Source: an uncultured Muribaculaceae bacterium (GTDB lineage: Bacteria > Bacillota_I > Bacilli_A > RF39 > UBA660). From it: 64,000 nucleotides of DNA. The stretch covers positions 73,980-137,979 of the forward strand of contig CAZELY010000001.1 of NCBI GenBank assembly GCA_964513345.1, in the 5' to 3' direction. Position numbers and translations under genes: made by a program. Below the pieces are notes generated by a model. It was given only the letters and a program-made list of their open reading frames with translations, was not told the DNA's origin and did no database searches. Numbering within the stretch: the stretch's first letter is position 1; every line of letters starts with the position of its first letter. Below, piece after piece: positions 21,340-62,027 of this stretch.

Positions 21340-22101
21340 CTAATTCAATATATTTGCGATAACATCAAAATCAAATTTAGATAAAATAATGATGATAGCT
21401 GCTAGGGCCAAAAAAGGTCCAAATGGTATTATGTGGTCACTATTCTTTTTGATGGTTATAAGTGATATTGGTAATGCAATTATAGAACCAATAAAAATTG
21501 AAAGTAGTGCCATAGGATAACCTAGTACAAAACCAATAATTCCCATTAATTTAATGTCACCACCACCCATTGATTCTCTTTTGAATAGAAAATCGCCGAG
21601 TTTTTTTAATCCCCACATTGTAAAAAATGCTAACACGGCTGCCAAGACATGTTTAAGAAAAACAATTGGGCCATAAATAACCATAACTTCCAGAATTAAT
21701 AATATACCAAACCCAAGTAGTACACTATCATTTATTATCATATAATTATAATCACTTATCATGATTATTATTAACATCGAAGCAAAAGTCAGAGGAATAA
21801 TTATGTCTGTACTTAATCCAAAAATAATATAACATAGTAAAAATACTATTCCAGTGAACATTTCAAAAATTGGATAAAACAATGAAATTTTTTGCTTACA
21901 ATTTCGACATTTACCTTTTTGAAATATATAAGAAAACACAGGAATCAATTCTAGCGTTCCTAGTTTGTGATTACAATTAGGACAGTGGCTTGCTGGAAAA
22001 ACAATTGATTCATTTTTCGGTAAGCGATATCCAACAACATTATAAAAGGATCCAAAAATGGTTCCAATTATAAAACTAAGTATTACGTAAAATATTTCCA
22101 T
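21340..22101 (-). CDS. Prepilin peptidase (A24 family, PilD/ComC/TadV-like)
   Basis: N-terminal CPNCNHKL...CRNCKQKI zinc-binding pairs and GGGDIKLMG. GGGGG RBS. Confidence 0.85.
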   Translation of the reverse strand: MEIFYVILSFIIGTIFGSFYNVVGYRLPKNESIVFPASHCPNCNHKLGTLELIPVFSYIFQKGKCRNCKQKISLFYPIFEMFTGIVFLLCYIIFGLSTDIIIPLTFASMLIIIMISDYNYMIINDSVLLGFGILLILEVMVIYGPIVFLKHVLAAVLAFFTMWGLKKLGDFLFKRESMGGGDIKLMGIIGFVLGYPMALLSIFIGSIIALPISLITIKKNSDHIIPFGPFLALAAIIIILSKFDFDVIANILN

Positions 22102-22109
22102 ATAACCCC

Positions 22110-23642
22110 CTACTGTTGAATTGCACTATACATGTTAAACATCGGAACAACAATCGCTAAAACAATTACTCCTACCATTACTGTTAACATGATAATCATC
22201 GCAGGTTCGACAAAAGATTTAATTCTCGCTACTGAGTTTTTATGTAAGTCTTGATAGTATTGCGAAACTTTGTCCATCATTTCAGCAAGCTGTCCTGTTT
22301 CTTCACCGGTAACTATCATTTCATATGCCGGAATCGGAAAAGCCCATTTGTCCTTAAATGCAGTTGAAATCTTCCCGCCTTTAGCGACATTTAAAACTGC
22401 TTCATCAATCATTTCTTTATAAATTTCGTTATTAGTAATTTTATGTAAAATATCCATACTATCGGTAATAAATACATTGTTTGAAAGTAATGAAGCAAAT
22501 GTTTTTGTAAACGTAGTTACCTCATTATAAATTATTACGTTTTTAAAAACTGGAAGATGCATACCTATTAATTGTATTGAACGACGAAATCCTCTTACAT
22601 TACGATATAAATATGAAAGAAACAAAATTAATACTATGACGCCAATTCCAACGATAATAACATAATTATTTAAAAATTCACTTAAGCCTAGAACCATTTT
22701 TGTGATCCATGGTAAAGTTGCATTGTCCATGCTATTATAAATATCGACAAATTTTGGCACGACAAACAACATTATAAATAATCCAACGCCGATAGCAATA
22801 ACAAATACGATTGTTGGATACATCATTGCTGAAATCATAGCTTTTCTTGTTGATTCCATTTCGGTATAATATTCTTCCATATCATCAAGTGTTTCCGGAA
22901 GTTCGCCTGTCATTTCAGCTGTTTGAACCATGTTTATAAACAACCTAGGAAAAGCTTTCCCTTGCTTATCCAAAGCTTCACTAAAGCTTCGTCCAATTGA
23001 TAAATCATACTTTATGGCTTTTAATATTTTTTGGTGCGTTGGATTTTTAAACTGTTTAGTTAGTTTATTTACTGCATCAGCAAGTGGTATACCAACCTTT
23101 AGATATGTAGATAATTGTGCAATCATGAAAATTAAATCTTTATTTTTAATTCGACTTTGATTTAACTCTTTCGCACTATGAAACATTTGAATATATTTTG
23201 AAGTGCGGATATCAAATACCTTATAACCTTCACTAAGCAAATATGAGTTTACTTCAACAACCGAAAAAGCGTCAAAGTATCCTATTAATGGTTTGCCATT
23301 CTCATCGGCCACCTCATATCTATAAGTAACCTTCTTGTCGTGTTTTTCGGCCTCTTCACCGTTGAAATTAACTTTGAATTCAGGACGTTCCAAGAATTTT
23401 TGCTCTTTTGCTGACAATACTTTTTCATCAGCTTTTTCTTTTATTTTTTTAGAAGTATTAATAACAGTATTACCTATAGCTTCAACTTTACTAGAGTTTT
23501 GTTTAGGAGTTTTGCTTGCTACTTTATTCTTTTTAGGAAAAATGCTTAGTAAAATACTAGGCATATATTTTAATCCAAGTAAAAAATAGTGGAAAAATCT
23601 ATATACATAAATACATGGCAACAATAACGTTTTTGTACTCAT
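22110..23642 (-). CDS. Type II secretion system F-family platform protein (PilC/ComGB-like) with a roughly 110-aa N-terminal extension
   Basis: GspF domains start near TYRYEVADENGKPLIGYF. A strong GGAGGG RBS supports the ATG at 23642, giving a hydrophobic, K-rich N-terminal extension. Confidence 0.75.
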   Translation of the reverse strand: MSTKTLLLPCIYVYRFFHYFLLGLKYMPSILLSIFPKKNKVASKTPKQNSSKVEAIGNTVINTSKKIKEKADEKVLSAKEQKFLERPEFKVNFNGEEAEKHDKKVTYRYEVADENGKPLIGYFDAFSVVEVNSYLLSEGYKVFDIRTSKYIQMFHSAKELNQSRIKNKDLIFMIAQLSTYLKVGIPLADAVNKLTKQFKNPTHQKILKAIKYDLSIGRSFSEALDKQGKAFPRLFINMVQTAEMTGELPETLDDMEEYYTEMESTRKAMISAMMYPTIVFVIAIGVGLFIMLFVVPKFVDIYNSMDNATLPWITKMVLGLSEFLNNYVIIVGIGVIVLILFLSYLYRNVRGFRRSIQLIGMHLPVFKNVIIYNEVTTFTKTFASLLSNNVFITDSMDILHKITNNEIYKEMIDEAVLNVAKGGKISTAFKDKWAFPIPAYEMIVTGEETGQLAEMMDKVSQYYQDLHKNSVARIKSFVEPAMIIMLTVMVGVIVLAIVVPMFNMYSAIQQ

Positions 23643-28991: not shown

Positions 28992-31052
28992 TTATGGCGT
29001 GTATTTTTCTACTTTCATTTTACCATTTTTGATATTAAACACAATACTTCCCTCTTCATCTGTTCTAAATATTTTTGAATTTCTTAAATTATTTAATACT
29101 TCTTTGTTTGGATGACCATAACGATTTTTCTTTCCAACACTAATTATTGAATATTTCGGATTAATCTCATCTATAAACTCTTTACTGCTACTTGTCTTTG
29201 AACCATGATGCCCCACTTTTAACACATCTATATCAGGTAAATTATATTTCTCTAATATTTCTTTTTCGGTAGTAACAGATGCATCTCCCATAAATAGAAA
29301 TTTATAACTATTTATGTCTGTATAAATAACGTTACTATTATCATTTTCATTATCGTATTCTTTTGTTTGTAAAAAATGTAATTTGTTGTTATCAACTTTT
29401 AATTCTTTGATACATGAAGAATGTTTAATTTTCTCTTTGTCTAATACCTTAATTAATTCTTTTTCTAACGTATTATATGGTCCACAATTAAATATTACTT
29501 TTTCTACTTTAAAATTATTAACTAAATTAATAGCTTCTCCCATATGATCAAAGTCGCCATGGGTCAAAATTAGTTCGGTAATTTTGTTAATGCCAATTGA
29601 TTTTAAATATGGAATAGTTTTGTTTTCAACTATTTTTGCTCCCATCATCTTACCACCAGTATCAATTAATATATTGTGTTTTGAGTTTGATAGTAATGTA
29701 CTATCACCTTGTGAGACATCTAAAAAACTAATCATTGTATTTTGACTAATAAAATTTATATTATGATGTATTATTAAACACATTAGTAGTAATATGAATC
29801 GTGAATATTTATGTTTAAAAATACCATTTATCGTTAAAATAATTACTAAATAATATAAAATTATCACGAAAAAACTAACATGTTTCAATTGAATTGTAAA
29901 TATCTTTATGTGACTTATTACTAACGAAAGGTTTTCTAAAATATTAATTAAAATACATAAAATATTATCTAGGGGTTTAATGAAAACTGTTATTAATGAA
30001 AGTGGAAACACTATAATAGATACAAACGGTACAAAAATAATATTAATAAGTGGACTTAAAAGGTTAATTTCAAAGTAGCTATTTGTTAAAACTGGAATGC
30101 TTACTAGAAACGCTATTAGTGATACTAGAAAAACGCTTTTAAAATACCCTTTTATTTTTTTCAAATGATCACTATACATCATCAAGAAAAACGTTATAAC
30201 AAATGAAAAAACAAAACCATTATTAAAAATTATAAAAGGGTTTAATAATAAATAAATACTAAAAATTAATATCAGAAAATAAATGCTTTCTACTTTTAAA
30301 TTTATAATTTTTTTGATCGTAAGGCATGTAAAAAGTAATACAGCCCTATTAACGGAAGGAGTAAAATTAACTAAAAACATATATATAAATAAAATAAGAA
30401 TTGTTATTAAATAGTTAAGTTTTTTCCGTTTTGAAATAATATTTAATGTATATAGTAATAGACCAGAAATCAGAGTAATATGCATACCTGAGATAGCTAA
30501 CAGATGACTGACACCATTTAACCGATAACTCTTTAAAATATTTTCATCTAATTCTTTTGAATTACCTAATATAAAAGTCATTAAATACTCTTTCGTTTTA
30601 TATTTTTTTATGCGCTCAAGAAGCCTATTTTTAAATTTGTAAAATGGACTAATCTTAGCATTTTGAATGGTAATAGTATTGGCATTCATTACGTGATAAA
30701 TATTTTGACTATATAAAAATTTTCGGTAATTAAATAAATTTGGTATCGTTGAATTACTTGCCTTTTCTATTTCACCAGCTACTTTTATTTTTTGCCCAAG
30801 TAAGCATTTAAAATCTTTATTGTAAGAAATTAATATTTTTTCTTTTCCTCGCATCGTAATTTTAGTGTTGTAATCGGTTTGCTGGCAATTTTCGATTATA
30901 CCAGTGATTGTTGCATTTCCTTCGTGAAATATGCTTTTAGGCACCGTTTTAACCATGAAAAAAGTGTATATAACACTTATTATTAATAAAATTACTATTG
31001 ATACATTAAACGCTGATGTAATCTTTAATTTTTTCAAATAATTGATCTCCAA
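28992..31052 (-). CDS. comEC: DNA internalization competence protein ComEC/Rec2 with a C-terminal metallo-beta-lactamase domain
   Basis: Competence domain GVSHLLAISGMHITLISGLL, a polytopic membrane region, and C-terminal LILTHGDFDHMG. Confidence 0.85.
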   Translation of the reverse strand: MEINYLKKLKITSAFNVSIVILLIISVIYTFFMVKTVPKSIFHEGNATITGIIENCQQTDYNTKITMRGKEKILISYNKDFKCLLGQKIKVAGEIEKASNSTIPNLFNYRKFLYSQNIYHVMNANTITIQNAKISPFYKFKNRLLERIKKYKTKEYLMTFILGNSKELDENILKSYRLNGVSHLLAISGMHITLISGLLLYTLNIISKRKKLNYLITILILFIYMFLVNFTPSVNRAVLLFTCLTIKKIINLKVESIYFLILIFSIYLLLNPFIIFNNGFVFSFVITFFLMMYSDHLKKIKGYFKSVFLVSLIAFLVSIPVLTNSYFEINLLSPLINIIFVPFVSIIVFPLSLITVFIKPLDNILCILINILENLSLVISHIKIFTIQLKHVSFFVIILYYLVIILTINGIFKHKYSRFILLLMCLIIHHNINFISQNTMISFLDVSQGDSTLLSNSKHNILIDTGGKMMGAKIVENKTIPYLKSIGINKITELILTHGDFDHMGEAINLVNNFKVEKVIFNCGPYNTLEKELIKVLDKEKIKHSSCIKELKVDNNKLHFLQTKEYDNENDNSNVIYTDINSYKFLFMGDASVTTEKEILEKYNLPDIDVLKVGHHGSKTSSSKEFIDEINPKYSIISVGKKNRYGHPNKEVLNNLRNSKIFRTDEEGSIVFNIKNGKMKVEKYTP

Positions 31053-31671
31053 TTCCTGTTACGTTCTTTATATCTTCGATTGTTTTAAATTCACCATTCT
31101 CTTCACGATATTTAACGATTTGCTTAGCTTTAGATTCACCAATGCTAGGAAGGCTAGTCAAATCAGCAACGGATGCCTTGTTAATCGATATTTTTCCATT
31201 TTCCGTCTGATTATTGTCATTATTATTTTCTAATATAATAGTATCGTCTTTTTCAGGACAAGCGATATTTTCTTTTGGGCAAACAATTTCCTCATTTTTG
31301 TTTTCTTTTAGTTTTTTGACCTCGTTTTTTGAATATATTATAACAACCATTTCATCTTGTAATAACTTACTCAAATTTGTTATTGAAGTATCAGCATTTT
31401 TAGTAACTCCGCCCGCCTGTTTTATTAAATCTGCAACCCGACTCCCCTCATTTAACTCGTAAACGCCGGCAGCATTAATTTCCCCTTTAATATCTACTTT
31501 TATTTTTTTTATTTCCTGTTCCTTGCTATCAACTACGGCAACTTCTTCTGTGTCACTTTCATCATATTGAATTAAAGTTAAAGTATAAATGTTAAAAGAT
31601 AGTAATGCCAAAATAATTACAATGACAATAATATAATTTTTATATTCCAATAATTTTTCTTTGATTCGCAT
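31006..31671 (-). CDS. comEA: Competence protein ComEA (helix-hairpin-helix DNA receptor)
   Basis: N-terminal TM and C-terminal tandem HhH INKASVADLTSLPSIGESKAKQIV...GIGDQLFEKI. Overlaps comEC by 47 nt. Confidence 0.85.
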   Translation of the reverse strand: MRIKEKLLEYKNYIIVIVIILALLSFNIYTLTLIQYDESDTEEVAVVDSKEQEIKKIKVDIKGEINAAGVYELNEGSRVADLIKQAGGVTKNADTSITNLSKLLQDEMVVIIYSKNEVKKLKENKNEEIVCPKENIACPEKDDTIILENNNDNNQTENGKISINKASVADLTSLPSIGESKAKQIVKYREENGEFKTIEDIKNVTGIGDQLFEKIKDYISV

Positions 31672-34237: not shown

Positions 34238-35362
34238 ATGAAAAATAAAAAAATTATACTTATTGTCGTGGCAATAATATTAATTCTAGGGGTTTCAGTA
34301 TTTTTCTTCATTAAATCTAAAGAAGTTAAAATCACCTTTAAAAAAGCCAACAATATTGAAATCAATTCAAAAATTTATAATACCGATCTGATAAAAAGTA
34401 TAAAAAATGGCAAATTGCAAACAAAAAAAGAAATAGTAAACACCTCTAAACTTGGTAGTCACAAAATAAAATATATAATTAAAAACTACTTTAAGAAAAA
34501 TAAAGAATATTTTTACACCATAACTGTTGTTGATACTGAAAAGCCAACAATCAAATTTGATAAACAAATAGAAACTACTATAGGTGTTGAAGCGGATTTG
34601 CTCAAAAACGTGAAAGCCGAAGATAATTCCAAGGAAGAAATTAAGGTTACTGTTGATGGTGAATATGATTTTAAAAAGACAGGGACCTATAAATTATATT
34701 ATATAGCAAAAGATTCCTCTAAAAACGAGGCTAAAGAAGAATTTACACTAGTTGTTAAAGAAAAACCTAAAGACACGACAATTATCACAAATCCCGACAA
34801 AACTTTTACGACGACCAAAGGGTTCAAGGGTTATACTAAAAATGGACTTACTTATATCGCTGGATATTTAGTCGCCAATAAAACATATTCCCTACCCTCA
34901 ACATATAACCCAGGATTAAATAGTGAAGTTCAAAGCAAAGCTAATGTAATGTTTAATGATGCAAAAAAAGAAGGCCTAAATATTTACATTTCAAGTGGTT
35001 TCAGGTCTTATAATACACAAAAAAATCTTTATAACAACTATGTGGCTAGGGATGGTCAAAATGCCGCTGATACGTATTCAGCAAGGCCTGGACATTCTGA
35101 ACACCAAACGGGTCTGGCATTTGACGTTAATCAGATAAATAGTTCTTTTGATAATACTGCTGAAGCTAAATGGCTCGCTAGTAACTGTTATAAATATGGT
35201 TTTATTCTAAGATATCCTAAGGGAAAAGAAAACGAAACTGGTTATATTTATGAGTCATGGCACTTTCGATATGTAGGAACTGATTTAGCAAATAAATTAT
35301 ATAATAATGGAAATTGGATAACAATGGAAACGTATTTTGGCATTACAAGTAAATATAATTAA
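34238..35362 (+). CDS. M15B D-alanyl-D-alanine carboxypeptidase (VanY-like) with an N-terminal TM and Ig-like/DUF5011-like domains
   Basis: SGFRSYNTQ ... SEHQTGLAFD ... YGFILRYPKGKENETGYIYESWHFRYVG. Confidence 0.8.
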   Translation: MKNKKIILIVVAIILILGVSVFFFIKSKEVKITFKKANNIEINSKIYNTDLIKSIKNGKLQTKKEIVNTSKLGSHKIKYIIKNYFKKNKEYFYTITVVDTEKPTIKFDKQIETTIGVEADLLKNVKAEDNSKEEIKVTVDGEYDFKKTGTYKLYYIAKDSSKNEAKEEFTLVVKEKPKDTTIITNPDKTFTTTKGFKGYTKNGLTYIAGYLVANKTYSLPSTYNPGLNSEVQSKANVMFNDAKKEGLNIYISSGFRSYNTQKNLYNNYVARDGQNAADTYSARPGHSEHQTGLAFDVNQINSSFDNTAEAKWLASNCYKYGFILRYPKGKENETGYIYESWHFRYVGTDLANKLYNNGNWITMETYFGITSKYN

Positions 35363-42434: not shown

Positions 42435-42491
42435 AATATCACCAATAATATTATACTAAAAAAAATGTCTTTTGAATATAAAAACGAAGAA

Positions 42492-43793
42492 TTATTCTTC
42501 GTTTAATAAATTAATATATTCGTTTTCAAGTTTTGAAATATCGTTTGGACTCATAAATAAAATCACAGAATTTTTATGTTTTACAAGTTTTTCAGCCTCA
42601 TCGATATTAATGCTTTCGGAATTCTTAACTTTCTTAATTAAGTCACCACTTGTAACATCAAAGTCTTCAGCTTTTTCTCTAGAGCCATGTATTTCCATAA
42701 TATATGCTTTAGAGGCCATTGATAAAACCTCAACATAATCATCAAAGAATTCTTTCATTCTTGAAAAGGTATGTGGTTGAAATACAACGACAATTTCTTT
42801 ACCTTCATATTTTTGCATCGCAGCTTTGATTGTTACTTTAACTTCTGTTGGATGATGAGCATAATCATCAATAATTATTGTATCACCAATAATAGTTTCC
42901 GAAAACCTTCTTTTAGCACCAGTAAAGGTTTTTAGCGCTTTAGCAACTTCCTTCGCATCGAGTCTTTCATAAGAGCAAACGCCAATTACCGCAAGTGCAT
43001 TCAAAAGTTGATGTTTTCCAAATATTGGTAAATCGAAGTGTCCATAGTAATTATCTTCAACAAAGACATCAAAACTAGTACCATTTTTAGAATATTCCAC
43101 ATCCTTGGCAATAATATCGTTATCATCATCCAAACCATAATAGAAAATTGGCTTATTTATATCCAAACTATGGGTATATGGATCATCACCGCAAGCTAAT
43201 ACCATCTTTTCAGCATTTGATGCATACTCGCGATAAGCATCAATAACATCATCAATATCTTTAAAATAATCTACATGATCTAATTCGATATTTGTAATAA
43301 TTGCATAATATGGACTATATGCAAGAAAATGACGTTGATATTCACATGCTTCTAGAGCAAAATATTTGTTTTCTTTGTTTGCGTGACCTGTACCATCGCC
43401 AATCAAATAATTAGCCCCACTAATGGTATTTAAAACATGTGCAAGTAAAGAGGTTGTAGATGTTTTTCCGTGACATCCAGCAACTGTAATCGTCTTAAAC
43501 ATGCGACTTAATTTACCCACAATTTCAGGATATGTATGAATAGTTAAATCAAGTTCTCTAGCGCGAATTAATTCTTCATGATCTTCTTTAATGGCGTTAC
43601 CACAAACAATTGTCATACCTTCTTGAATATTATCTTTATTATAAGGAAGTATTTCAATACCCCGTTCGATTAATCCGGTTTCGGTAAAGAAATGTTTATC
43701 GATATCACTTCCTTTTACTTCATATCCAAGATCGAATAAAATGGCGGCTAATGCACTCATTCCTGAGCCTTTAATGCCAATAAAATAATACAT
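42492..43793 (-). CDS. murC: UDP-N-acetylmuramate--L-alanine ligase MurC
   Basis: FIGIKGSGMSALA and VAGCHGKTSTTSLLAHVL, with the Mur ligase domain order. Confidence 0.9.
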   Translation of the reverse strand: MYYFIGIKGSGMSALAAILFDLGYEVKGSDIDKHFFTETGLIERGIEILPYNKDNIQEGMTIVCGNAIKEDHEELIRARELDLTIHTYPEIVGKLSRMFKTITVAGCHGKTSTTSLLAHVLNTISGANYLIGDGTGHANKENKYFALEACEYQRHFLAYSPYYAIITNIELDHVDYFKDIDDVIDAYREYASNAEKMVLACGDDPYTHSLDINKPIFYYGLDDDNDIIAKDVEYSKNGTSFDVFVEDNYYGHFDLPIFGKHQLLNALAVIGVCSYERLDAKEVAKALKTFTGAKRRFSETIIGDTIIIDDYAHHPTEVKVTIKAAMQKYEGKEIVVVFQPHTFSRMKEFFDDYVEVLSMASKAYIMEIHGSREKAEDFDVTSGDLIKKVKNSESINIDEAEKLVKHKNSVILFMSPNDISKLENEYINLLNEE

Positions 43794-43802
43794 ATGTGCC
43801 TC

Positions 43803-44504
43803 CTAACCTATCAGTTCAATTAAATATGGTCCCAAAACTAATAACATTATTAATGGGACAATAAAAATTACTGATAATATGCTTACTTTGTTTGGTATTT
43901 TATTTATTTGCCCTTTTATTTCTAATATTTGTTTTTCTCTTAAAAAATTAATTTGATTATACATTGTATCTAAAATACTATTTCCAAATTGATTTGTTTG
44001 AATAATATTTAAAATAATATTATTGATGGTTTCTGATGGAATTCTTTTTTTCATGCTTTCTAGTGACTCGATCAATGATTTACCAAAATTCATCTCAAGT
44101 AATGCGCGTTTGAATTCCGTAGAAATTTCAGATTCAACATTGTCACAAGTAACTCTTAAAGCTTGCTCGAGATTTCTTCCAGAAGCAAGCGTTAAAGTTA
44201 AAACTTCAAAAAAGTTTAATGCCTCATAATCTAATTTAATAGTTCGCTTCTTAATCTTATTGGTAATAAAAACATAATAGAACAAGTAGTAATACCCTAC
44301 AGCGACAAATGGCGCATATATGTAACCGTTTTTTGTAATAAACATTGTTACTATAAATGCAATTATCGTTGTTAAAAGACGAGTATTGCAGAAAGTCACC
44401 AAATTAAATTTTGTATCATTACCCAAACTCATTAATTTGTTTGAAATATCTTCAAGTTCCTTTTGGCGATATAACTTATACGCTAATCTATCACGATTTT
44501 CCAT
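43803..44504 (-). CDS. Tad-pilus inner-membrane platform protein TadC-like (T2SS-F domain)
   Basis: 233 aa with a single GspF-like domain between TMs. Last gene of the Tad-like operon. Confidence 0.65.
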   Translation of the reverse strand: MENRDRLAYKLYRQKELEDISNKLMSLGNDTKFNLVTFCNTRLLTTIIAFIVTMFITKNGYIYAPFVAVGYYYLFYYVFITNKIKKRTIKLDYEALNFFEVLTLTLASGRNLEQALRVTCDNVESEISTEFKRALLEMNFGKSLIESLESMKKRIPSETINNIILNIIQTNQFGNSILDTMYNQINFLREKQILEIKGQINKIPNKVSILSVIFIVPLIMLLVLGPYLIELIG

Positions 44505-45998
44505 TTATATCACCACCTTCATTACTCTTCTTACGACATATATGAAGATTAAATAATATACTAACATAATTCCTAATAAAATTCTACCTATACCAGTTGT
44601 GACAAATGGTAAGAAATATGATGGACTTATAATACTTATAAATAAAACAAATAAGAATGGAACTATAAATAATACATAAACTATTATTCTACTGCTGGCA
44701 GTTAAAGATTTTAATTCCAAACGAAGTGTCTTTTTGTTAAACATAGTTTTTTCGATAGAAGTAAATACTTCGACGATATTACCACCAGTTTTATTCAAAA
44801 TAGTAAGTGAAGCTGTTAAATAATTAACCTCATCTAATTTAACACGTTTGGCAAATCTTTTAAACACTGTATCAATTTCCAAACCATATGATAGTTCAAG
44901 ACTCATTTTAGAAAACTCTCTAGCCATTCTTCCATTCAATTCGTGGCTTACAATGTCAATTGCTTGGACGATACTACGGCCAGATTTAAACGCATTATTC
45001 ATAACAATAATCGCAGAAAGTAAATCATTTTCCAATTTTTTGCGATAGGTTTTAAATTTAATAAAATAAACAATATCTAAAAGGAAGAAACCAACAGTCA
45101 TTGGCAAAAATATTTCATATGGTGAAATTAACCTAAATTGAATTGCACGCGCAAAAATGCCAATTATTAAGAATAAAACTGCCATGATAATCTTGCTAAT
45201 AAATATTTGCATGCCATTTGTATGGATAAAACTAATTTCGGCATATTTCTCTAAATGTTTACTATATTTTTGCGCAAAAATTGATTTTGTGAATTTATCT
45301 TCTTGTTTTCTTAACATATTTTGATACCATGAAACAATACGATCACTTAAAGAAGGTTCTTTTGTTTTCACTGAAGAAAGTGTAAATGGATCGATACGGT
45401 TCATTAAATGCACTGATTTGACAAATCTTGTTATAAGAAGCGCTATACCGATAATTAAAACAAACGCTAGCAGTTGCATGCCATATAAAAAGTAGGCATT
45501 ATTGGTTACATTGACATTTAAATTTGCTTCTGCAATATTGCCAGCTTCATCACTGACCTTATAAGTGATTGTTTTTTCACCAAGTTGTTTTAAATTAACC
45601 TCATCGATATTAGATTGAATTTGATTAGTTAAATCTCCGCTGATAGTATCACTTGCAGTAACATAATTTGAAGGAAAATCTTCGTTTTGTCGAAGCGTCA
45701 AATTATTTTCTTTAAATTTTAAAACAGGGGCTTCTTTATCGATAACATATTCACCACTGTGAATTACATGTTCGCCCGTTGCGTCTTTCACTTTAACGTC
45801 AATTTTATAAACTCCTGTTTCATTTAAATTTATACGAACGTCATTAGCAGAATTAATGGTGGCTGTATAAAATTGTTCATCATCTTTAAAAACAATATAC
45901 GTATAAGATTTTGTGTTTTGGGCAGGTGAAAAAACAACAATTAAATCTTTATTTGTTGGCTTTTCAGTATTCAAAATGTTGAAGTTTCCACCTTCCAT
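44505..45998 (-). CDS. TadB-like platform protein (T2SS-F domain) fused to an N-terminal Ig-like/DUF5011-like domain
   Basis: Residues 1-165 are soluble and Ig-like (TITYKVSDEAGNIAEANLNVNV). The first TM is followed by RFVKSVHLMNR, which predicts N-out topology. The C-terminal 300 aa form a GspF/TadB-like domain. Confidence 0.65.
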   Translation of the reverse strand: MEGGNFNILNTEKPTNKDLIVVFSPAQNTKSYTYIVFKDDEQFYTATINSANDVRINLNETGVYKIDVKVKDATGEHVIHSGEYVIDKEAPVLKFKENNLTLRQNEDFPSNYVTASDTISGDLTNQIQSNIDEVNLKQLGEKTITYKVSDEAGNIAEANLNVNVTNNAYFLYGMQLLAFVLIIGIALLITRFVKSVHLMNRIDPFTLSSVKTKEPSLSDRIVSWYQNMLRKQEDKFTKSIFAQKYSKHLEKYAEISFIHTNGMQIFISKIIMAVLFLIIGIFARAIQFRLISPYEIFLPMTVGFFLLDIVYFIKFKTYRKKLENDLLSAIIVMNNAFKSGRSIVQAIDIVSHELNGRMAREFSKMSLELSYGLEIDTVFKRFAKRVKLDEVNYLTASLTILNKTGGNIVEVFTSIEKTMFNKKTLRLELKSLTASSRIIVYVLFIVPFLFVLFISIISPSYFLPFVTTGIGRILLGIMLVYYLIFIYVVRRVMKVVI

Positions 45999-46007
45999 AT
46001 ACTCCTC

Positions 46008-47330
46008 CTATTTTTTAAAAATGTCGCTTAAATCATCTTGACCACGAGTGGTTATTTTATTATAAACGTGTGGGATTTTGTTATATAACAAGAATTCCCC
46101 TTTAACTTCGCCATTTGGCAAAACGCCAGTTTGTCTAAATTCAAAAATTGGATTTTGGATGATCTCGCCATCCTTTATCCCTATAATCTCATTAATACTT
46201 GATACCCTTCTTCGACCATCGGAAAATCTTTGGACACCGACAACAATATCGATAGCGTTTTCAATATATTCACGAATGGCTGTAACCGGTATTTCAATTC
46301 CGTTCATTAACACCATCGTCTCTAATCGATCCAAAGCATCTTCCGGCCCATTAGCGTGCATGGTAGTCATACTACCATCGTGTCCAGTATTCATGGCCTG
46401 TAACATATCAAATGCTTCCTTACCACGAACTTCACCTACAATAATACGATCAGGACGCATTCTTAAGGAATTAATTACTAAGTCTCTTATAGTAACTTGT
46501 CCTGAGCCTTCGTAATTAGTTGTACGCGTTTCAAGTGAAATTACGTGCTCTTGTTTAAGTTTTAATTCGGCAGCATCTTCAATTGTAATAATACGATCGT
46601 CAGGATCACAAAATGAAGATAAAACGTTTAAAAGTGTTGTTTTTCCGGAACCAGTACCACCGACAACTATAATATTTAGTTTAGCGTGTACGCAAGCTTC
46701 TAAAAATCTTGCCATATAAGGTGTTAGCGTTCCGGTTCGTAAGTAATCATCAATATTGGCAAGCTCGTGTTTAAACTTACGAATCGTTAAAACCGGTCCT
46801 TTAATTGAAAGCGGTGGTAACACAGCATTCAAACGAGAACCATCATCTAATCTTGCGTCGACCATTGGATGGGCTACGTCAATTGTTCTTCCCAAAGGTT
46901 GAACTAAACGCTGGATTACACGAACTATATGTTCATCATTAACAAAACTTACACTTTTATCCAAAATTAATTTACCATTTAATTCAATGTATATTTCATC
47001 TTTACCATTTACCATTATTTCCGTTATTTCACGATCTTTTAAAAGTTCGGTAAGTGGGCCATAACCGCTAATTTCATTATCGATTAAATTATAAATGTAG
47101 TTTCGCTCGTTAGTTGACAAATCATATCCTTTGGTTGTTTGATCAATTTGTAATTTAACAAAATCATCCATTGACTCATGCTCTTGAATATTATTATCGA
47201 TTAAATTTTGGATGATTTCATTTCTTAATTGATCCAGAAGTTCTTTATTCGGAAAGGCTTCATAGTCGCTTATTTCTTCACGAATAGTTTCTTCTTCATG
47301 AACATCAAATTCATCAATAAATTTTTTCAT
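46008..47330 (-). CDS. CpaF/TadA-family secretion ATPase
   Basis: Walker A IIVVGGTGSGKTTLLN, a VirB11-like core (RPDRIIVGEVRG, His box), and a length of 440 aa. Confidence 0.85.
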   Translation of the reverse strand: MKKFIDEFDVHEEETIREEISDYEAFPNKELLDQLRNEIIQNLIDNNIQEHESMDDFVKLQIDQTTKGYDLSTNERNYIYNLIDNEISGYGPLTELLKDREITEIMVNGKDEIYIELNGKLILDKSVSFVNDEHIVRVIQRLVQPLGRTIDVAHPMVDARLDDGSRLNAVLPPLSIKGPVLTIRKFKHELANIDDYLRTGTLTPYMARFLEACVHAKLNIIVVGGTGSGKTTLLNVLSSFCDPDDRIITIEDAAELKLKQEHVISLETRTTNYEGSGQVTIRDLVINSLRMRPDRIIVGEVRGKEAFDMLQAMNTGHDGSMTTMHANGPEDALDRLETMVLMNGIEIPVTAIREYIENAIDIVVGVQRFSDGRRRVSSINEIIGIKDGEIIQNPIFEFRQTGVLPNGEVKGEFLLYNKIPHVYNKITTRGQDDLSDIFKK

Positions 47331-47345
47331 GATCCTTTCCTCCTT

Positions 47346-48092
47346 TTATTCTTCAATTATGTCATTAACAATTTTTGTAATGACTTTCCCACCTTTGCTA
47401 TTTTCGATTGATTTATTCAACGTCATTATTGTGCCATCAAACAAATATTTATCAATATTATTGATATAGAAACTTTTTGGAATAATATAATTAATATCAG
47501 CTTCAATAACATTTTTAATGTCATATACACTATAATTTGCATTTCCAAAATGAGCTTCATTTAAAATAATTTTATAATTGCTTTTATCCATGTCTTTGTA
47601 AATAGACATCATGGTTTTCATGTTTTTCATGTCCATTAGATCATTAGTCATAATATATAAAACAGTGTCGCTATGATCTAAGGCCATTAAATTTATTTTA
47701 TCAGTTATATGGTTAGTATCGATTAAAATTACTTCATATTGCATTGATAAACGTGAAAGCAATACCTCAAAAAACTTTGTACTAAATTTACTGACATTTC
47801 GTGGATCAATTGGAGCTGCCAACACATCAATATATTCATTATAACTGTTTACGTAATCTTTTAAATCATGGAAACGGTTATTCATCATATCTTCATTTAA
47901 AGTATAAATATCGCTGGTTGGTTTCAAGTTTAGAGAAGCCGCAATACTTCCAAAATATAAATCGAAATCAACAATAATTGTCTTTTTTTGCATCTGTGAT
48001 AAAACTCCAGCAATATTAAGTGTCATCGTCGTTTTGCCAGTACCACCCTTAACTGATGTGACAGTTATAATTTTCGCTTTATTAAGTGCCAT
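47346..48092 (-). CDS. CpaE/TadZ-like ParA/MinD-family ATPase
   Basis: Deviant Walker A TSVKGGTGKTT. No receiver-like N-domain. Confidence 0.7.
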   Translation of the reverse strand: MALNKAKIITVTSVKGGTGKTTMTLNIAGVLSQMQKKTIIVDFDLYFGSIAASLNLKPTSDIYTLNEDMMNNRFHDLKDYVNSYNEYIDVLAAPIDPRNVSKFSTKFFEVLLSRLSMQYEVILIDTNHITDKINLMALDHSDTVLYIMTNDLMDMKNMKTMMSIYKDMDKSNYKIILNEAHFGNANYSVYDIKNVIEADINYIIPKSFYINNIDKYLFDGTIMTLNKSIENSKGGKVITKIVNDIIEE

Positions 48093-48102
48093 AAGATCAC
48101 CC

Positions 48103-48471
48103 CTATTTTTTTCTAATAATTATTTTTTCGCCTTCGAGATGCCCAGTATAAGTAATATCGATATCGTAATAATTCTTAATGATATTCGTAAAAATACTTG
48201 GCTCTTTTTTTGTAACTTCAATAGTTATTTTGTTTTCTTCAATCGATATGTTTTTTTGACCATCAATATTTTTTTCAAGTAAAGAGCTTAACTTTTGATA
48301 GGTATCCCCTTCTTTGTTTTTCAATCCATAAGTGATGGCATCTTTGATTGCATTTTCATACTTTTGTTTTTTTAATTCAACTGATCCTAAATCATAAACA
48401 ATCGCCATTAGCAAAAACATTATTGGTAAAAGTAAAACAAAAACTATTAAAGATTGTCCTTTATTATTCAT
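48103..48471 (-). CDS. TadE-like pseudopilin/pilin
   Basis: N-terminal class-III signal MNNKGQSLIVFVLLLPIMFLLMAIVYDLG. Confidence 0.6.
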   Translation of the reverse strand: MNNKGQSLIVFVLLLPIMFLLMAIVYDLGSVELKKQKYENAIKDAITYGLKNKEGDTYQKLSSLLEKNIDGQKNISIEENKITIEVTKKEPSIFTNIIKNYYDIDITYTGHLEGEKIIIRKK

Positions 48472-48820
48472 GGCTTTCCTCCGAATTATTTACGTAGATT
48501 GTTTTGCTTTCTTTTGCATGATATCGCTTACCAAGAACATTTGATAAAACAGGAGCTGTGACTTTAATCTCTTTTTCAACATTTAATGTTACTAGCTCAC
48601 CATTTTTATTTTCACTATAAATAATATCTTCTTTGGCTACAAAAGCCTGAAGTTCTTTTTCGTTACCATTTTGATATAAATCCGTGATAGTTTCAAGGCA
48701 ATTATTTAAATTATATTTTTGCACAAAAATATTACCAATATCAATTAAAGCAACAAAAATTAAAATGATTATTGGTAAAACTAAAACGAATTCAATTAGT
48801 GCTTGCCCCTTATCTTTCAT
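48464..48820 (-). CDS. TadE-like pseudopilin/pilin
   Basis: MKDKGQALIEFVLVLPIIILIFVALIDIG, the TadE motif E-F-V-L-x-L-P. First gene of the operon; TTGTTA-17-TATAAT lies upstream on the - strand. Confidence 0.6.
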   Translation of the reverse strand: MKDKGQALIEFVLVLPIIILIFVALIDIGNIFVQKYNLNNCLETITDLYQNGNEKELQAFVAKEDIIYSENKNGELVTLNVEKEIKVTAPVLSNVLGKRYHAKESKTIYVNNSEESHE

Positions 48821-48876
48821 TCTACCACGCTACCTATCATGTAAATTATATCAAATTTATTGTAAAATAACAATAA

Positions 48877-48910
48877 AATTCACCAAAAAAAGCACTTTTT
48901 TAAGTGCTTT
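48877..48910. terminator. Bidirectional terminator downstream of xfp
   Basis: AAAAAGCACTT tttt AAGTGCTTTTT. Confidence 0.6.
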
Positions 48911-51256
48911 TTAATTGCCCCATTTCCAGTTTTTAATTTCGGGCATATCTTCTCCATATTTTCGAATATAAATATTGTGCTCGATAATTTTATTTTTCAT
49001 TTTTTCCATTAGATACATTTCTTTACTGCCCTTATTTTCTAAGTGTTCAATAACATCCATTACCAAATGGAAACGATCGATTTCATTTTGAACACGCATA
49101 TCAAATGGTGTAGTAATTGTACCTTCTTCTAAATATCCATGAACTGAAATGTTTCTATTATGCCTTAAATACGTAAGCTCATGAATCAATTTAGGATATC
49201 CATGATAGTTAAAAATTATTGGCTTATTCTTTGTAAACAACATATCATATTCAGCGTCAGATAAGGCGTGAGGATGTTTCGTAGGTGACTCTAATTTCAT
49301 TAAATCAACAACATTGACACATCTAATTTTTAAATCTGGCAGTTCTTTATTTAAAATTGAAATTGCCCCAATTGTCTCTAACGTTGGTGTTGCCCCAGCA
49401 CAGGCCATAATAACATCAGGATTAGTTTGTTGATCATTACTAGCCCAAGGCCATATACCAATACCTTTGGTGCAGTGTTCAACAGCCTCATCCATAGGAA
49501 GCCATTGATAACTAGGATGTTTTGAAGCAACAATTACATTGACATAATTTCGACTTTTTATACAATGATCGAAACATGATAACAAAGTATTAGTGTCAGG
49601 CGGTAAGTACATTCTAACAACATCAGCTTTTTTATTAGCAACGTGATCTAAAAATCCTGGATCTTGATGCGTATAACCATTATGATCTTGTTGCCAAACA
49701 TTTGAAGTTAACACTAAATTCAAAGAAGCAATACTCCTTCTCCATGAAATACCATTACAAACTTTTAACCATTTAGCATGTTGAGAAACCATGGAATCAA
49801 CAACACGTATAAAAGCTTCATAACTATTGAAAAATCCATGTCTTCCCGTAAGAAGATATCCTTCCAACCATCCTTCACACATGTGTTCAGAAAGATAAGA
49901 GTCCATTATTCTTCCTTTTTTATCTAAGTGTTCATCATTTTCTAACGTTTTGCTTTGCCAATCTCTATCAGCTGCTTCGAACATGTTATAAAGTCTATTT
50001 GACATTGCTTCATCTGGTGAAAAAGCTCTAAAATTACTTGGATTATTTGTAATAACGTCTCTAATGTATGTGCTTAGTTCAAGCATGTCGCTTGCCAAAA
50101 TTTCACCATGATCATTAAATTTTACTCCATAGTCTTTAAAATTTGGTAAAACTAAATCTTTTAAAAGTAATCCCCCATTAGCATATGGGCTGGCACCCAT
50201 TCGTTTTTTGCCAGTTGGAATAATTCTTTTAATTTCAGTGTTTAATTTACCTTCTTCATCAAATAATTCTTCAGGATGATAACTTCTTAACCATTGCTCT
50301 AAAACTTCTAAATGGTCATCTTCAGTCATTGAAACAGGGACTTGATGCGCTTTAAATGTCCCTTCAATTTTTTCACCATTTACTTCTTTTGGACAAGTCC
50401 AACCTTTAGGTGTTTTTAAAATAATCATTGGCCAAAGCGGTAGTTCATCGCTTTCTTTGGCTTTTTCTTTTATCGATTTTATTTGCTCAATTACAGTATC
50501 CATTGTCTTAGCCATCAAAGCATGCATTGTTTTAGGGTTACTTCCTTCTACCAAATATGCTTTATATCCAAGGCCATAAAAATAACTTCCCAATTGTTTA
50601 TTGGACATTCTTGCAAAAACTGTAGGATTGCTTATTTTATATCCATTTAAATTTAAAATTGGTAATACAACCCCGTCAGTTTTTGGATTTATAAATTTGT
50701 TGGAATTCCATGAAGTAGCAAGTGGTCCAGTTTCAGCTTCGCCATCACCGACAACACAAGCCGCAATTAGTTTCGGATTATCTAAAACAGCTCCAAAAGC
50801 GTGAGCAAGAGAATATCCTAATTCTCCTCCTTCGTGAATGCTTCCAGGAGTTTCGGGTGCTGCATGCGAAGAAACACCACCAGGAAAAGAAAACTGCTTA
50901 AAAAATTTCTTTAAACCTTCTTCATCTTCGGTGATATTCGGATAAAATTCAGAATATGTACCTTCCAAATAAGTATTGGACGTCAAAAAATTCCCGCCGT
51001 GTCCAGGGCCAGATACATAAATCATATCTAAATTGTATTTTTTAATAACCCGATTTAAATGTGTATATATAAAATTTTGTGTTGGAACTGTTCCCCAGTG
51101 TCCAACGATTTTTCTTTTTATATGTTCTTTTTGTAAAGGTTCTTTTAAAAGTGGATTATCAAGTAAATAAAGCTGACAAGCCGATAAATAATTTGCAGCT
51201 CTAAAATATTTATTTAATAATTCAATTTCCTCATTTGAAATATTATTTTCTTTCAT
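48911..51256 (-). CDS. xfp: Phosphoketolase (xylulose-5-phosphate/fructose-6-phosphate phosphoketolase)
   Basis: 781 aa with the N-terminal XFP signature GHWGT, a TPP-binding region GPGHGG, and EGGELGY. Confidence 0.9.
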   Translation of the reverse strand: MKENNISNEEIELLNKYFRAANYLSACQLYLLDNPLLKEPLQKEHIKRKIVGHWGTVPTQNFIYTHLNRVIKKYNLDMIYVSGPGHGGNFLTSNTYLEGTYSEFYPNITEDEEGLKKFFKQFSFPGGVSSHAAPETPGSIHEGGELGYSLAHAFGAVLDNPKLIAACVVGDGEAETGPLATSWNSNKFINPKTDGVVLPILNLNGYKISNPTVFARMSNKQLGSYFYGLGYKAYLVEGSNPKTMHALMAKTMDTVIEQIKSIKEKAKESDELPLWPMIILKTPKGWTCPKEVNGEKIEGTFKAHQVPVSMTEDDHLEVLEQWLRSYHPEELFDEEGKLNTEIKRIIPTGKKRMGASPYANGGLLLKDLVLPNFKDYGVKFNDHGEILASDMLELSTYIRDVITNNPSNFRAFSPDEAMSNRLYNMFEAADRDWQSKTLENDEHLDKKGRIMDSYLSEHMCEGWLEGYLLTGRHGFFNSYEAFIRVVDSMVSQHAKWLKVCNGISWRRSIASLNLVLTSNVWQQDHNGYTHQDPGFLDHVANKKADVVRMYLPPDTNTLLSCFDHCIKSRNYVNVIVASKHPSYQWLPMDEAVEHCTKGIGIWPWASNDQQTNPDVIMACAGATPTLETIGAISILNKELPDLKIRCVNVVDLMKLESPTKHPHALSDAEYDMLFTKNKPIIFNYHGYPKLIHELTYLRHNRNISVHGYLEEGTITTPFDMRVQNEIDRFHLVMDVIEHLENKGSKEMYLMEKMKNKIIEHNIYIRKYGEDMPEIKNWKWGN

Positions 51257-55062: not shown

Positions 55063-55305
55063 TTATCTAGATCTTCCCTGTTCGATGTCATCAATTTGAG
55101 GATTTTCTTCATCATAATTTTCTTCATCATAATTTTCTTCATCATAATTTTCTTCATCGGTAGGAATTTCGATATCTTCCCATTCTTGTTCCTCAACAAG
55201 CATTTCCTCACGTTTTTCAACATCATCAGCTATTTTATCAGCCTCATTAGCCACCCAATTTTCAGCTTCTTCCCTAGCTTTTTTCTTGTCAGTAAAAAAT
55301 CCCAT
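55063..55305 (-). CDS. Small acidic protein with EENYD tandem repeats
   Basis: 80 aa. Three exact EENYD repeats plus a truncated fourth (EEN) are encoded by a perfect 15-bp DNA tandem repeat. Confidence 0.45.
   Translation of the reverse strand: MGFFTDKKKAREEAENWVANEADKIADDVEKREEMLVEEQEWEDIEIPTDEENYDEENYDEENYDEENPQIDDIEQGRSR
55107..55155. repeat. 15-bp perfect tandem repeat, about 3.3 copies (TCATAATTTTCTTCA)
   Basis: Read directly from the sequence at 55107-55155. It lies in-frame within the acidic protein gene. Confidence 0.8.
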
Positions 55306-60989: not shown

Positions 60990-62027
60990 ATGAAAAAAAT
61001 TTTGTTTTTACTCGTAATATTAACTATAATATCCGTTGCTATCTTTTTTATCAAAGATAGTAAAAAAGAAAGTGTTTTGTTACTAGAATTAAAAGGCAAA
61101 AAAATAATTACCATAAACATTAACGAAAAATTTTTTGACCCTGGTTTTAAGGCATTTGATACCATTGATGGTGATCTTACCAATAAAGTTAAAATAATTA
61201 ACAATATCAATACATCTAAAGAAGGAAATTATCAAATCACATATAAAGTTAAAAACTCAAAAGGAATTTCTAAAGAGGCATATCGCTTCGTTAAAGTAAA
61301 ATCGCTTCCATATTATAAAGAAGAATATAATAATCTCGATAATACTACTAGAAGTTGGTGGGCTACTAATAAGAAAAACAAAACGCGACCTACCGGTGGT
61401 GCCGATATAAATGAGCTAAAAAAATATAATGCTTATTATTTAGGACCAGACGAAAAAATAATCTACTTAACTTTTGATGAGGGCGCACTAGAAACTTATA
61501 TTAAAGAAATTGTCGAAGTTCTTGATAAAAACAACGCAAAAGCCACTTTCTTTTTATGCTATAAATATATGATAGAAAACAAAGAATTAATTAAAAATAT
61601 GGTATCGAGTGGCCACACTATTGGTAATCACACAGTAAATCATTTAAATATGCCTTCCCTGGCTACAAAAGAAAAATTTAATGAGTATTTATATGAAATA
61701 CAAAAGGTGGAGCAAGGTTATAAGGAAATCACTGGCAAAAACATGGAAAAAATATATCGTTCGCCTCGCGGTGAATGGAGCATACGTGACTTGCAAATTA
61801 TGAAAGATCTGGGTTATAAAACATACTTTTATAGTGCTTATTACTTAGATTTTGAAAATGATGTTAGCAAAGAATATGCCTTAAATGAACTTTTAATTAG
61901 ATATCATAATGGAGCCATATATTTACTGCATCCTAAAAACAAAGGAAATTTAGAGGCCTTAGACTCATTTATAAAAATTATGAAAAATAATGGTTACAAG
62001 TTTGATTTAGTAAAAAACATCCCTTAG
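60990..62027 (+). CDS. Polysaccharide deacetylase (NodB domain, PdaA-like) with an N-terminal TM and an Ig-like/DUF5011-like domain
   Basis: Ig-like block DGDLTNKVKI...GNYQITYKVKN, then NodB IIYLTFDEG...KATFFL...HTIGNHTVNH. Confidence 0.75.
   Translation: MKKILFLLVILTIISVAIFFIKDSKKESVLLLELKGKKIITININEKFFDPGFKAFDTIDGDLTNKVKIINNINTSKEGNYQITYKVKNSKGISKEAYRFVKVKSLPYYKEEYNNLDNTTRSWWATNKKNKTRPTGGADINELKKYNAYYLGPDEKIIYLTFDEGALETYIKEIVEVLDKNNAKATFFLCYKYMIENKELIKNMVSSGHTIGNHTVNHLNMPSLATKEKFNEYLYEIQKVEQGYKEITGKNMEKIYRSPRGEWSIRDLQIMKDLGYKTYFYSAYYLDFENDVSKEYALNELLIRYHNGAIYLLHPKNKGNLEALDSFIKIMKNNGYKFDLVKNIP

Follow-up and report, generated by a model that had tools for sequence, protein, structure and literature searches.

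Six open reading frames lie tightly packed on the minus strand at 43803-48820 of the window (the whole 64 kb stretch of DNA analysed here), with intergenic gaps of -8 to +15 nt. In the direction of transcription they are tadE1, tadE2, a ParA/MinD-type ATPase gene at the tadZ position, cpaF/tadA, a tadB-like gene and a tadC-like gene, with murC following (Table 1). Order, strand and packing are as the earlier note had described them, and all six frames were found at the coordinates it gave. The host is an uncultured gut bacterium with a small genome; its relatives are of the CAG-822/Candidatus Coprosoma lineage in the order RF39, which replaces the Erysipelotrichia-like affiliation that had been considered.

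Table 1. Features of the tad locus and of the prepilin peptidase gene in the window
Feature	Position	Strand	Description
PilD/ComC-type prepilin peptidase	21340..22101	-	Pfam A24_N_bact and Peptidase_A24
Unit-end terminator	42482..42504	-	10-pair stem overlapping the murC stop, T-rich tail
murC (UDP-N-acetylmuramate-L-alanine ligase)	42492..43793	-	Three Mur ligase domains; seventh gene of the unit
tadC-like platform protein	43803..44504	-	233 aa; T2SSF E = 1.5e-15, residues 98-224
tadB-like platform protein	44505..45998	-	One T2SSF domain, residues 332-454
tadA/cpaF	46008..47330	-	Hexameric Tad motor ATPase; T2SSE E = 7.7e-59
ParA/MinD-type ATPase (TadZ/CpaE position)	47346..48092	-	Pfam AAA_31, ParA, CbiA
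tadE2	48103..48471	-	122 aa; tadE1 paralogue
tadE1	48464..48820	-	118 aa, TadE-family minor pilin; Pfam TadE E = 3.7e-9
Operon promoter	48845..48873	-	-35 TTGTTA, 17-nt spacer, extended -10 TGaTATAAT
xfp rho-independent terminator	48884..48910	-	AAGCACTT-loop-AAGTGCTT, then T-run; read directly from the sequence

Motor, partner ATPase and platform

Judged by its protein families, the well-conserved six-gene block is a genuine Tad (type IVc) operon for pilus assembly, because the motor belongs to the CpaF/TadA family and the platform is split into TadB and TadC. The best NCBIfam model for the motor is that of the TadA family (328 bits, below the model cut-off of 373), the ComGA and PilB models being far weaker (59 and 42 bits), and among solved structures it comes closest to Caulobacter CpaF (E = 2e-104; 3e-48 for an archaeal homologue). 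Identity of TadA within the window's subclade is 76-86%. Each of the two platform proteins carries a single T2SSF domain, compared to two in the PilC-type protein encoded at 22110-23642. The results for the motor ATPase, the platform and the TadE proteins agree on a Tad-type rather than a com or type IVa assignment, as had been proposed. Features of a Com (ComG) system are absent from the operon: the ATPase stays far below the ComGA cut-off of 300 bits, the platform is split, and the pilin signals are of the TadE type, not GFTLxE.

Two components depart from the canonical form. The TadB-like protein has five hydrophobic segments and an extra N-terminal region of 170 aa with a Bact_surface_Ig-like domain (Pfam, residues 97-164), which, to judge from hydropathy, is probably located outside the membrane or cell; this long form (~500 aa) is confined to part of the clade, the protein having ~335 aa elsewhere. 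The ATPase at the TadZ position comprises 248 aa, with the Walker A motif KGGTGKT and no N-terminal receiver-like domain, compared to 383-447 aa for canonical TadZ at distant loci. Its closest solved proteins are MinD, aligned across residues 6-207, and no solved TadZ matched it at E <= 1e-5.

TadE proteins and prepilin peptidase

TadE1 and its paralogue TadE2 are the minor pilins of the TadE/TadF type (PF07811) at this locus, and each bears a prepilin signal. The signal of TadE1 (MKDKG|QALIEF) has Glu at +5 and Pro at +11, and the protein shows the type IV pilin fold of a long N-terminal helix on a small beta-sheet, resembling in this the GspI/EpsI-type minor pseudopilins of type II secretion; pseudopilins of the GspI/GspK type count among the nearest known systems. 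TadE2 gave only sub-threshold matches to Pfam Tad/TadE, and its relationship to TadE1 is revealed by a full-length profile comparison (hhalign, probability 99.3%, E = 1e-20). Its signal, MNNKG|QSLIVF, has a hydrophobic Val in place of Glu at +5; among the 44 orthologues tallied the position is L/I/V/A/M in 39 and Glu in none, a pattern more in keeping with a subunit of the tip than with one that polymerises. The cleavage motif of the TadE proteins is invariant across the orthologues compared, and neither TadE1 nor TadE2 shows an obvious difference in length or motif between relatives carrying flp and those without it. Because they are unchanged in flp-carrying relatives, both are classified from sequence as the usual minor pilins. 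The suggestion that the TadE-like proteins might themselves be the pilus subunits is thus not upheld: they occur unchanged beside flp in relatives, and nothing demands a main-subunit role for them.

A single A24 prepilin peptidase was seen in the window, the PilD/ComC-type enzyme, at the distance from the operon that had been pointed out and with CxxC...CxxC and GGGD motifs visible. It is a candidate for cleaving the leaders of TadE1 and TadE2 (and Flp). A dedicated TadV/CpaA peptidase (A24 without the N-terminal domain) was not seen in the window. No RF39 locus yielded a BLAST match to the window's PilD in the ~10 kb next to the operon, in a search that a distant TadV-type enzyme could escape. 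One relative has a PilD orthologue (52% identity) directly adjoining DUF192-flp-tadE1. A PilC-PilD pair beside tad as the ancestral layout was not adopted, for it occurs in one species only and in 0/58 genome loci.

Promoter, terminators and murC

The TTGTTA-17-TATAAT promoter reported before is confirmed, now with an extended -10 TG, and no other site in the region scores as high (10/12). Between it and the tadE1 ATG there is a conserved leader, GATAGGTAGCGTG. The same TTGTTA...TGnTATAAT box stands at equal distance from the tadE1 ATG in most relatives, flp carriers included. Upstream, a hairpin and a T-run come after the xfp stop codon (48911-48913); they were recognized by eye and missed by a simple terminator scan. 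This terminator fills the upstream space, as had been stated, and the space is the one used by the flp terminator in sister species.

At the other end, tadC and murC are separated by 9 nt without a terminator, no convincing promoter of murC's own was found, and the sole minus-strand terminator-like site downstream of tadC is the one at the end of murC (42504-42482). The operon hence appears to read straight into murC, as the earlier note had it; the link is no peculiarity of this genome, given that tadC-murC adjacency is kept in 25 related species with gaps of -7 to 54 nt. The six tad genes and murC are understood as one seven-gene transcription unit with a conserved sigma-70-type promoter.

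The flp gene in the window and in relatives

Three motif scans and a clade-specific Flp HMM detected no Flp-like open reading frame in any frame of the whole 64 kb window. Two of the scans were over-strict and missed even TadE1, and the looser scan together with the profile was used instead. Applied to all stop-to-stop segments from 20 aa upwards, the HMM matched only the N-termini of TadE1 and TadE2. The observation that no flp lies in or beside the operon therefore stands. Neither flp nor the DUF192 gene occurs in the window or within ~8 kb of the operon (~20 kb around it) in adequately flanked genomes of the subclade. This subclade is monophyletic, comprises 15 species that all have the six tad genes intact, and lacks both DUF192 and flp near the operon. 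An apparent Flp remnant 5' of tadE1 at one locus (L014) was a weak profile match (E = 0.19), and the sequence there is a terminator and promoter region.

The same tad cassette was found in 58 related species genomes, with the operon intact in every one examined. Upstream of tadE1, 23 of the 58 have a canonical Flp gene (PF04964; 63-73 aa), in most cases directly adjacent. The description of the window's locus as complete needs revision on this point: sister species have a bona fide Flp gene 5' of tadE1, and the window shows the machinery without the detachable pilin module. In sister species flp has its own TTGACA promoter, a GGAGG ribosome-binding site and a terminator, after which the window-like tadE1 promoter follows. 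A DUF192 gene is usually paired with flp in divergent orientation; it is present near flp at 19/23 flp-carrying loci compared to 0/35 loci without flp (p = 9e-12). The junction between flp and tadE1 is interrupted by a single foreign gene, for a sigma factor, in one species and by three foreign genes in the closed genome of one relative. In one widespread species (>230 contigs), no tad gene lies within 10 kb of the DUF192-flp module, which is flanked by the same cysS and Zn-peptidase genes as the linked module of another species (L022).

For the one species with an orphan flp, no link to a tad operon without flp could be made. Between the species with orphan flp (P0181) or queH-linked flp (P0180) and the window's subclade there were no close orthologues, QueH being 50% identical. 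Because flp is equipped with a promoter, ribosome-binding site and terminator of its own, pairs with DUF192, shows disrupted junctions and exists as an unlinked module, it is regarded on these genomic grounds as an autonomous one-gene unit in this clade, easily separated from the operon.

Discussion

Based on the collective evidence, the locus is probably a normal monoderm Tad machine, co-transcribed with murC, that would assemble a Flp filament from a flp gene most likely situated elsewhere on the ~1.3-1.5 Mb chromosome. Its mode of action is proposed by analogy to known Tad and other type IV filament systems. The PilD-type peptidase is assumed to remove the 5-residue leaders of TadE1 and TadE2 after Gly5. 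TadE2, lacking Glu at +5, and TadE1, possessing it, could then form a priming complex at the tip. The CpaF/TadA hexamer, acting via a TadB-TadC heterodimer, would lift pilins out of the membrane, with the short ParA-like ATPase docking or positioning the motor and the Ig-like domain of TadB probably placed outside the membrane. The filament body would consist of the small Flp pilin encoded outside this locus.

The unlinked flp modules demonstrated in the clade speak against a genuine loss of flp and DUF192 at the root of the CAG-822-like subclade, which would leave TadE1 to form a fibre or a short, piston-like pseudopilus primed by TadE2. We regard such a loss as rather unlikely. It would account for the lack of both genes from the window and from ~20 kb around the operon in adequately flanked subclade genomes; moreover, TadE1 retains polymerisation features (invariant cleavage site, Glu at +5, long N-terminal helix), tadE1 is the first gene behind a strong promoter, and an operon so intact and conserved must still have a function. 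However, TadE1 and TadE2 are like those of flp carriers in length and motif and give no sign of a new role, and no Tad system is known to function with no major pilin. Unlikely, too, is the specific form of the idea in which, after loss of flp and DUF192, a Tad motor co-expressed with murC would operate with the two TadE-like proteins only, TadE1 forming the fibre or, in a new role, a short pseudopilus, for example at the cell wall.

Assembly of GFTLxE-class pilins by the Tad machine, processed by the PilD-type enzyme and used instead of or alongside Flp, is considered very unlikely. Genes for such pilins do occur in or beside the tad loci of relatives, between flp and tadE1 at two loci (L037, L044) and just upstream of tadE1 at one where flp is absent (L058); the only peptidase seen is of PilD type, and in one species a PilC-PilD pair abuts the tad locus. 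The window itself has no such pilin gene, however, and the GFTLxE pilins are explained by a separate type IVa/Com-like machine because they have a PilB/GspE-type ATPase of their own, adjoining them in subclade genomes (L010, L008), and a PilC-type platform, present in the window; comEA and comEC (28992-31671) are there as well. Lastly, the short distance of murC from tadC and its want of a convincing promoter could suggest a decaying remnant, retained only because murC needs the operon promoter. Six reading frames intact in every species examined, with no frameshifts or stops seen, the conservation of TadA across the subclade and the invariant signal motifs make this most improbable, and 5 kb of dead sequence would not persist in a reduced genome of 1.3-1.5 Mb.

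The locus shares with the Tad/Flp systems of Aggregatibacter actinomycetemcomitans and Caulobacter crescentus the CpaF-family ATPase, the split TadB/TadC platform, a ParA-like partner and TadE-type minor pilins with a G|xxxxE signal. It differs from them in lacking the secretin, RcpB/RcpC, TadD and TadG, an absence to be expected in a cell with no outer membrane, and also a TadV-type peptidase and flp; it has, in turn, the 248-aa TadZ-position protein without N-terminal domain, the Ig-like TadB and the co-transcribed murC. Monoderm bacteria of the gut and mouth have compact Tad loci, among them Bifidobacterium breve UCC2003. Compact loci are described likewise for the monoderm Bulleidia extructa PP_925 (PMC12786226) and the uncultured TANB77 clade (PMC11680825). 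The Bulleidia locus comprises 13 genes, including tadV, two pilA, tadE, tadF and tadG, and coexists with a separate comG-type system (PMC12786226). As in the window, Tad is kept in these host-associated Gram-positives, some of them genome-reduced, and is taken to serve adhesion and colonisation. In contrast to their loci, which include pilin genes, the window has six genes with the pilin module detached, and its locus, instead of being a recent acquisition, is conserved by vertical descent throughout a clade of order level. Tad pili serve DNA uptake in Micrococcus luteus (PMC4322843) and Liberibacter (PMC8513845), where Tad is found alongside ComEA and ComEC as it is here, the Liberibacter genome being reduced too. 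The likeness of the window to these two consists in gene co-presence, however, and a separate PilB/PilC/PilD-type system would be available for DNA uptake. For the Tad machine of the window, adhesion or colonisation in the gut is the likely role.

The locus is thus an ordinary, though compact, member of the known Tad family, and the understanding of Tad systems is unchanged by it. RF39 bacteria, which are uncultured and whose genomes are very small, are common in human and animal guts; the literature found on them makes no mention of pili. With the pilin gene forming a separate unit, automatic annotation will often score such Tad systems as incomplete, and the tight DUF192-flp pairing provides a testable lead on the function of the DUF192 family. 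Retention of the intact 5 kb Tad operon in 58/58 species points to a surface filament as a central part of the RF39 lifestyle, in which it may serve to attach the cells to the host, food particles or partner cells.

Identity and transcription of the tad locus

The six tad genes are tightly packed, neighbours overlapping by up to 8 nt or lying at most 15 nt apart, and encode a system that the earlier note had called Tad-like, and the profile searches bear this out: among the NCBIfam models the TadA family was the top match of the ATPase at 328 bits, compared with 59 for ComGA and 42 for PilB, so that no reassignment to a com or T4P system was obtained. Caulobacter CpaF is its nearest solved structure (E = 2e-104; runner-up an archaeal homologue, 3e-48), which makes the system Tad-type, neither com nor type IVa, in agreement with the single T2SSF domain of both TadB and TadC. 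The ATPase at the tadZ position has MinD proteins as its nearest solved structures and comprises 248 aa, whereas the TadZ proteins of distant Tad loci have 383-447 aa. TadB is extended at its N-terminus by 170 aa, in which the profile search places a bacterial-surface Ig-like domain; we infer from hydropathy that this extension lies outside the membrane, and the long form is confined to part of the clade. The same domain, PF16403, is also found on cell-wall enzymes of the window.

The strongest promoter match of the region, TTGTTA-17-TATAAT with TG immediately 5' of the -10 box, follows a hairpin and T-run placed after the xfp stop (48911-48913), and the upstream space is indeed taken up by the xfp terminator. 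Gene order, promoter and read-through into murC likewise stand. Because the sole minus-strand terminator-like site past tadC overlaps the murC stop, tadE1, tadE2, tadZ, tadA, tadB, tadC and murC appear to form a single seven-gene transcription unit. The position of xfp between mutS and the tad operon is peculiar to the window's own species and one relative (L006); the remaining members of the subclade, that is, the TadA-tree group of the window and 14 species, have mutS and then the tad promoter, in some with a different small gene in between. An acidic ORF of 80 aa with a tandem EENYD repeat (EENYDEENYDEENYDEENP) is called as a gene at the same place on matching metagenome contigs.

Features of the window (unprefixed positions) and of related loci from the TadA comparison (L numbers)
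Feature	Position	Strand	Annotation
Operon promoter	48873-48845	-	TTGTTA-17-TATAAT
tadE1	48464-48820	-	Pfam TadE, E = 3.7e-9
tadE2	48103-48471	-	Tad/TadE matches, all sub-threshold
tadZ position	47346-48092	-	ParA/MinD-type ATPase
tadA	46008-47330	-	T2SSE ATPase
tadB	44505-45998	-	single T2SSF domain; PF16403
tadC	43803-44504	-	single T2SSF domain
murC	42492-43793	-	start 9 nt past tadC
Terminator-like site	42504-42482	-	10-pair stem
xfp	48911-51256		phosphoketolase
Acidic ORF	55063-55305	-	80 aa
PilD-type peptidase	21340-22101	-	A24
PilC/GspF-type platform	22110-23642	-	510 aa, two T2SSF domains; adjoins peptidase
comEC	28992-31052	-	Competence + Lactamase_B
comEA	31006-31671	-	SLBB + HHH_3
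Other PF16403 sites	17361-18758; 34238-35362		polysaccharide deacetylase, VanY carboxypeptidase
Probable fourth PF16403 case	60990-62027		by eye only
DUF192 examples	L017 7706-8050; L085 5579-5902; L097 9601-9984
GFTLxE-type pilin genes	L037 8089-8544; L044 4856-8080; L058 6673-8448; L010 1984-3710
SVGYAAF-type proteins	L008 7964-8467; L004 10003-10509		~167 aa, adjoining tad locus

Organism and conservation

The genome, which the earlier note had supposed might be Erysipelotrichia-like, is not Erysipelotrichia. An identical TadA protein occurs on gut-metagenome contigs with gene order unchanged, and relatives of this protein carry the labels Bacilli, Tenericutes, Mollicutes, Firmicutes bacterium CAG:822 and Candidatus Coprosoma, the last being GTDB genus CAG-822 of order RF39 (PMC8035907); closed genomes of the group measure 1.2-1.5 Mb. 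Scanning one genome per species by TadA gave 58 RF39 loci, their TadA sharing 61-83% identity with that of the window (other phyla, at most 57%). The same cassette is present in all loci with enough sequence, murC following tadC in 25 of them (gap -7 to 54 nt), and the predicted Tad machine is, judged by these loci, conserved throughout RF39.

The pilin module

Three motif scans, the six-frame check for short pilin-signal ORFs included, turned up no Flp-like ORF in the 64 kb, whatever the frame, and a clade-derived Flp profile run against all stop-to-stop segments of at least 20 aa hit the two TadE-like proteins at their N-termini and nothing else; the absence of flp in or beside the operon is thus confirmed. 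At 23 related loci an ORF of 63-73 aa lies upstream of tadE1, immediately adjacent in most, with a G/QALVEY motif, a hydrophobic helix and two invariant cysteines. The Flp alignment retrieved 3777 relatives from the database, many with precomputed Pfam PF04964 (Flp_Fap) and some named Flp pilin by JGI. In alignment A1 of the RF39 Flp proteins one cysteine is invariant and the second is present in all full-length sequences, within a conserved C-terminal SSC...GEGxC; the pair, unusual in such a small pilin from an anaerobe, suggests a disulfide or metal site.

The flp gene is present in sister groups of the subclade and was found near the operon in none of the 14 subclade species, with upstream flank of 2 kb or more covered in 11 of these loci and in the window. 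The flp unit of sister species comprises a TTGACA-type promoter, a GGAGG ribosome-binding site and a terminator, past which stand the same TTGTT-17-TGnTATAAT promoter and leader as in the window; the window locus thus corresponds to a sister locus from which one detachable module is missing, the xfp terminator standing where sister loci have that of flp. Of the claim of a complete Tad operon without Flp, the machinery genes stand but completeness does not. A divergent DUF192 gene (PF02643), absent from the window, accompanies flp in 19/23 flp loci compared to 0/35 flp-less loci (Fisher p = 9e-12). Tad loci of two MAGs, one from Dehalococcoidia (L063) and one from Caldisericia (L074), likewise contain a DUF192 gene; we found no paper tying DUF192 to Tad or Flp.

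The flp-tadE1 junction breaks often. Among the contexts of six database Flp proteins, tadE1 is immediately next in two, displaced by a sigma-factor gene in one and by three unrelated genes in another (closed genome OW818670.1), and missing from the ~220-450 nt left before the contig ends in a fifth; the sixth flp is an orphan on > 230 contigs, with tad genes absent within 10 kb. The orphan DUF192-flp is flanked by cysS and a Zn-peptidase gene on one side and by hrcA-grpE-dnaK on the other, and the former pair also flanks the linked DUF192-flp-tad-murC block of one relative (L022), therefore the tadE1-to-murC block apparently moved as a unit and the pilin module stayed. Unlinked flp genes thus exist in the RF39 clade, the direct evidence coming from the orphan and not from the window's subclade, to which no gene was found tying the orphan-flp species.

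Other filament and uptake genes

The window's only prepilin peptidase lies far from the operon, as first noticed; it is a PilD-type A24 enzyme, and no TadV-type peptidase was seen. With its adjoining PilC/GspF platform it comes after dnaG-rpoD-trmK-YqfQ, and no matching ATPase or pilin gene was found in the window. One related species has the orthologous PilC-PilD block abutting DUF192-flp-tadE1 directly, an arrangement that is not general and hints at a functional link. The window's comEC and comEA, overlapping by 47 nt, imply that the genome encodes a DNA-uptake channel and DNA receptor. Subclade genomes have a PilB/GspE-type ATPase and GFxxxE pilins a few kilobases off the tad operon; there is therefore a second system, Com-like or type IVa-like, which can account for DNA uptake. 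Relatives' tad loci contain or adjoin GFTLxE-signal pilin genes, among them very large ones (591 and 1074 aa); in two cases such genes stand between flp and tadE1. Two proteins, each beside the tad locus of a subclade member, have signal peptides ending in SVGYAAF, which we take to resemble SipW-dependent, TasA-type signals; the window has no counterpart.

Interpretation

True loss of flp with a TadE-based fibre, in line with the proposal that the TadE-like proteins are themselves the pilus subunits, seems unlikely. TadE1 and TadE2 align as paralogues over their full length (hhalign probability 99.3%, 112 columns), and the likeness of TadE1 to Flp is limited to its first 27 residues. TadE1 has G/QAL[VI]EF and Pro at +11 in 47/47 sequences; among the 44 TadE2 sequences tallied, residue +5 is L/I/V/A/M in 39 and Glu in none, and a hydrophobic, non-Glu +5 is the known pattern of tip subunits such as GspK. 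Both proteins occur, and look similar, in flp-bearing and flp-less relatives, with no sign of major-subunit takeover, and they are the usual minor pilins. Use of other pilins by the Tad machine is more doubtful still than true loss, and decay of the operon is very unlikely.

We found no paper on Tad pili in RF39; comparable Tad loci are known from other Gram-positive bacteria with reduced genomes (PMC12786226, PMC11680825). The best reading, which we consider probable, is of an ordinary monoderm Tad machine, RF39-wide and co-transcribed with murC, for which flp would be a separable module elsewhere in the genome.
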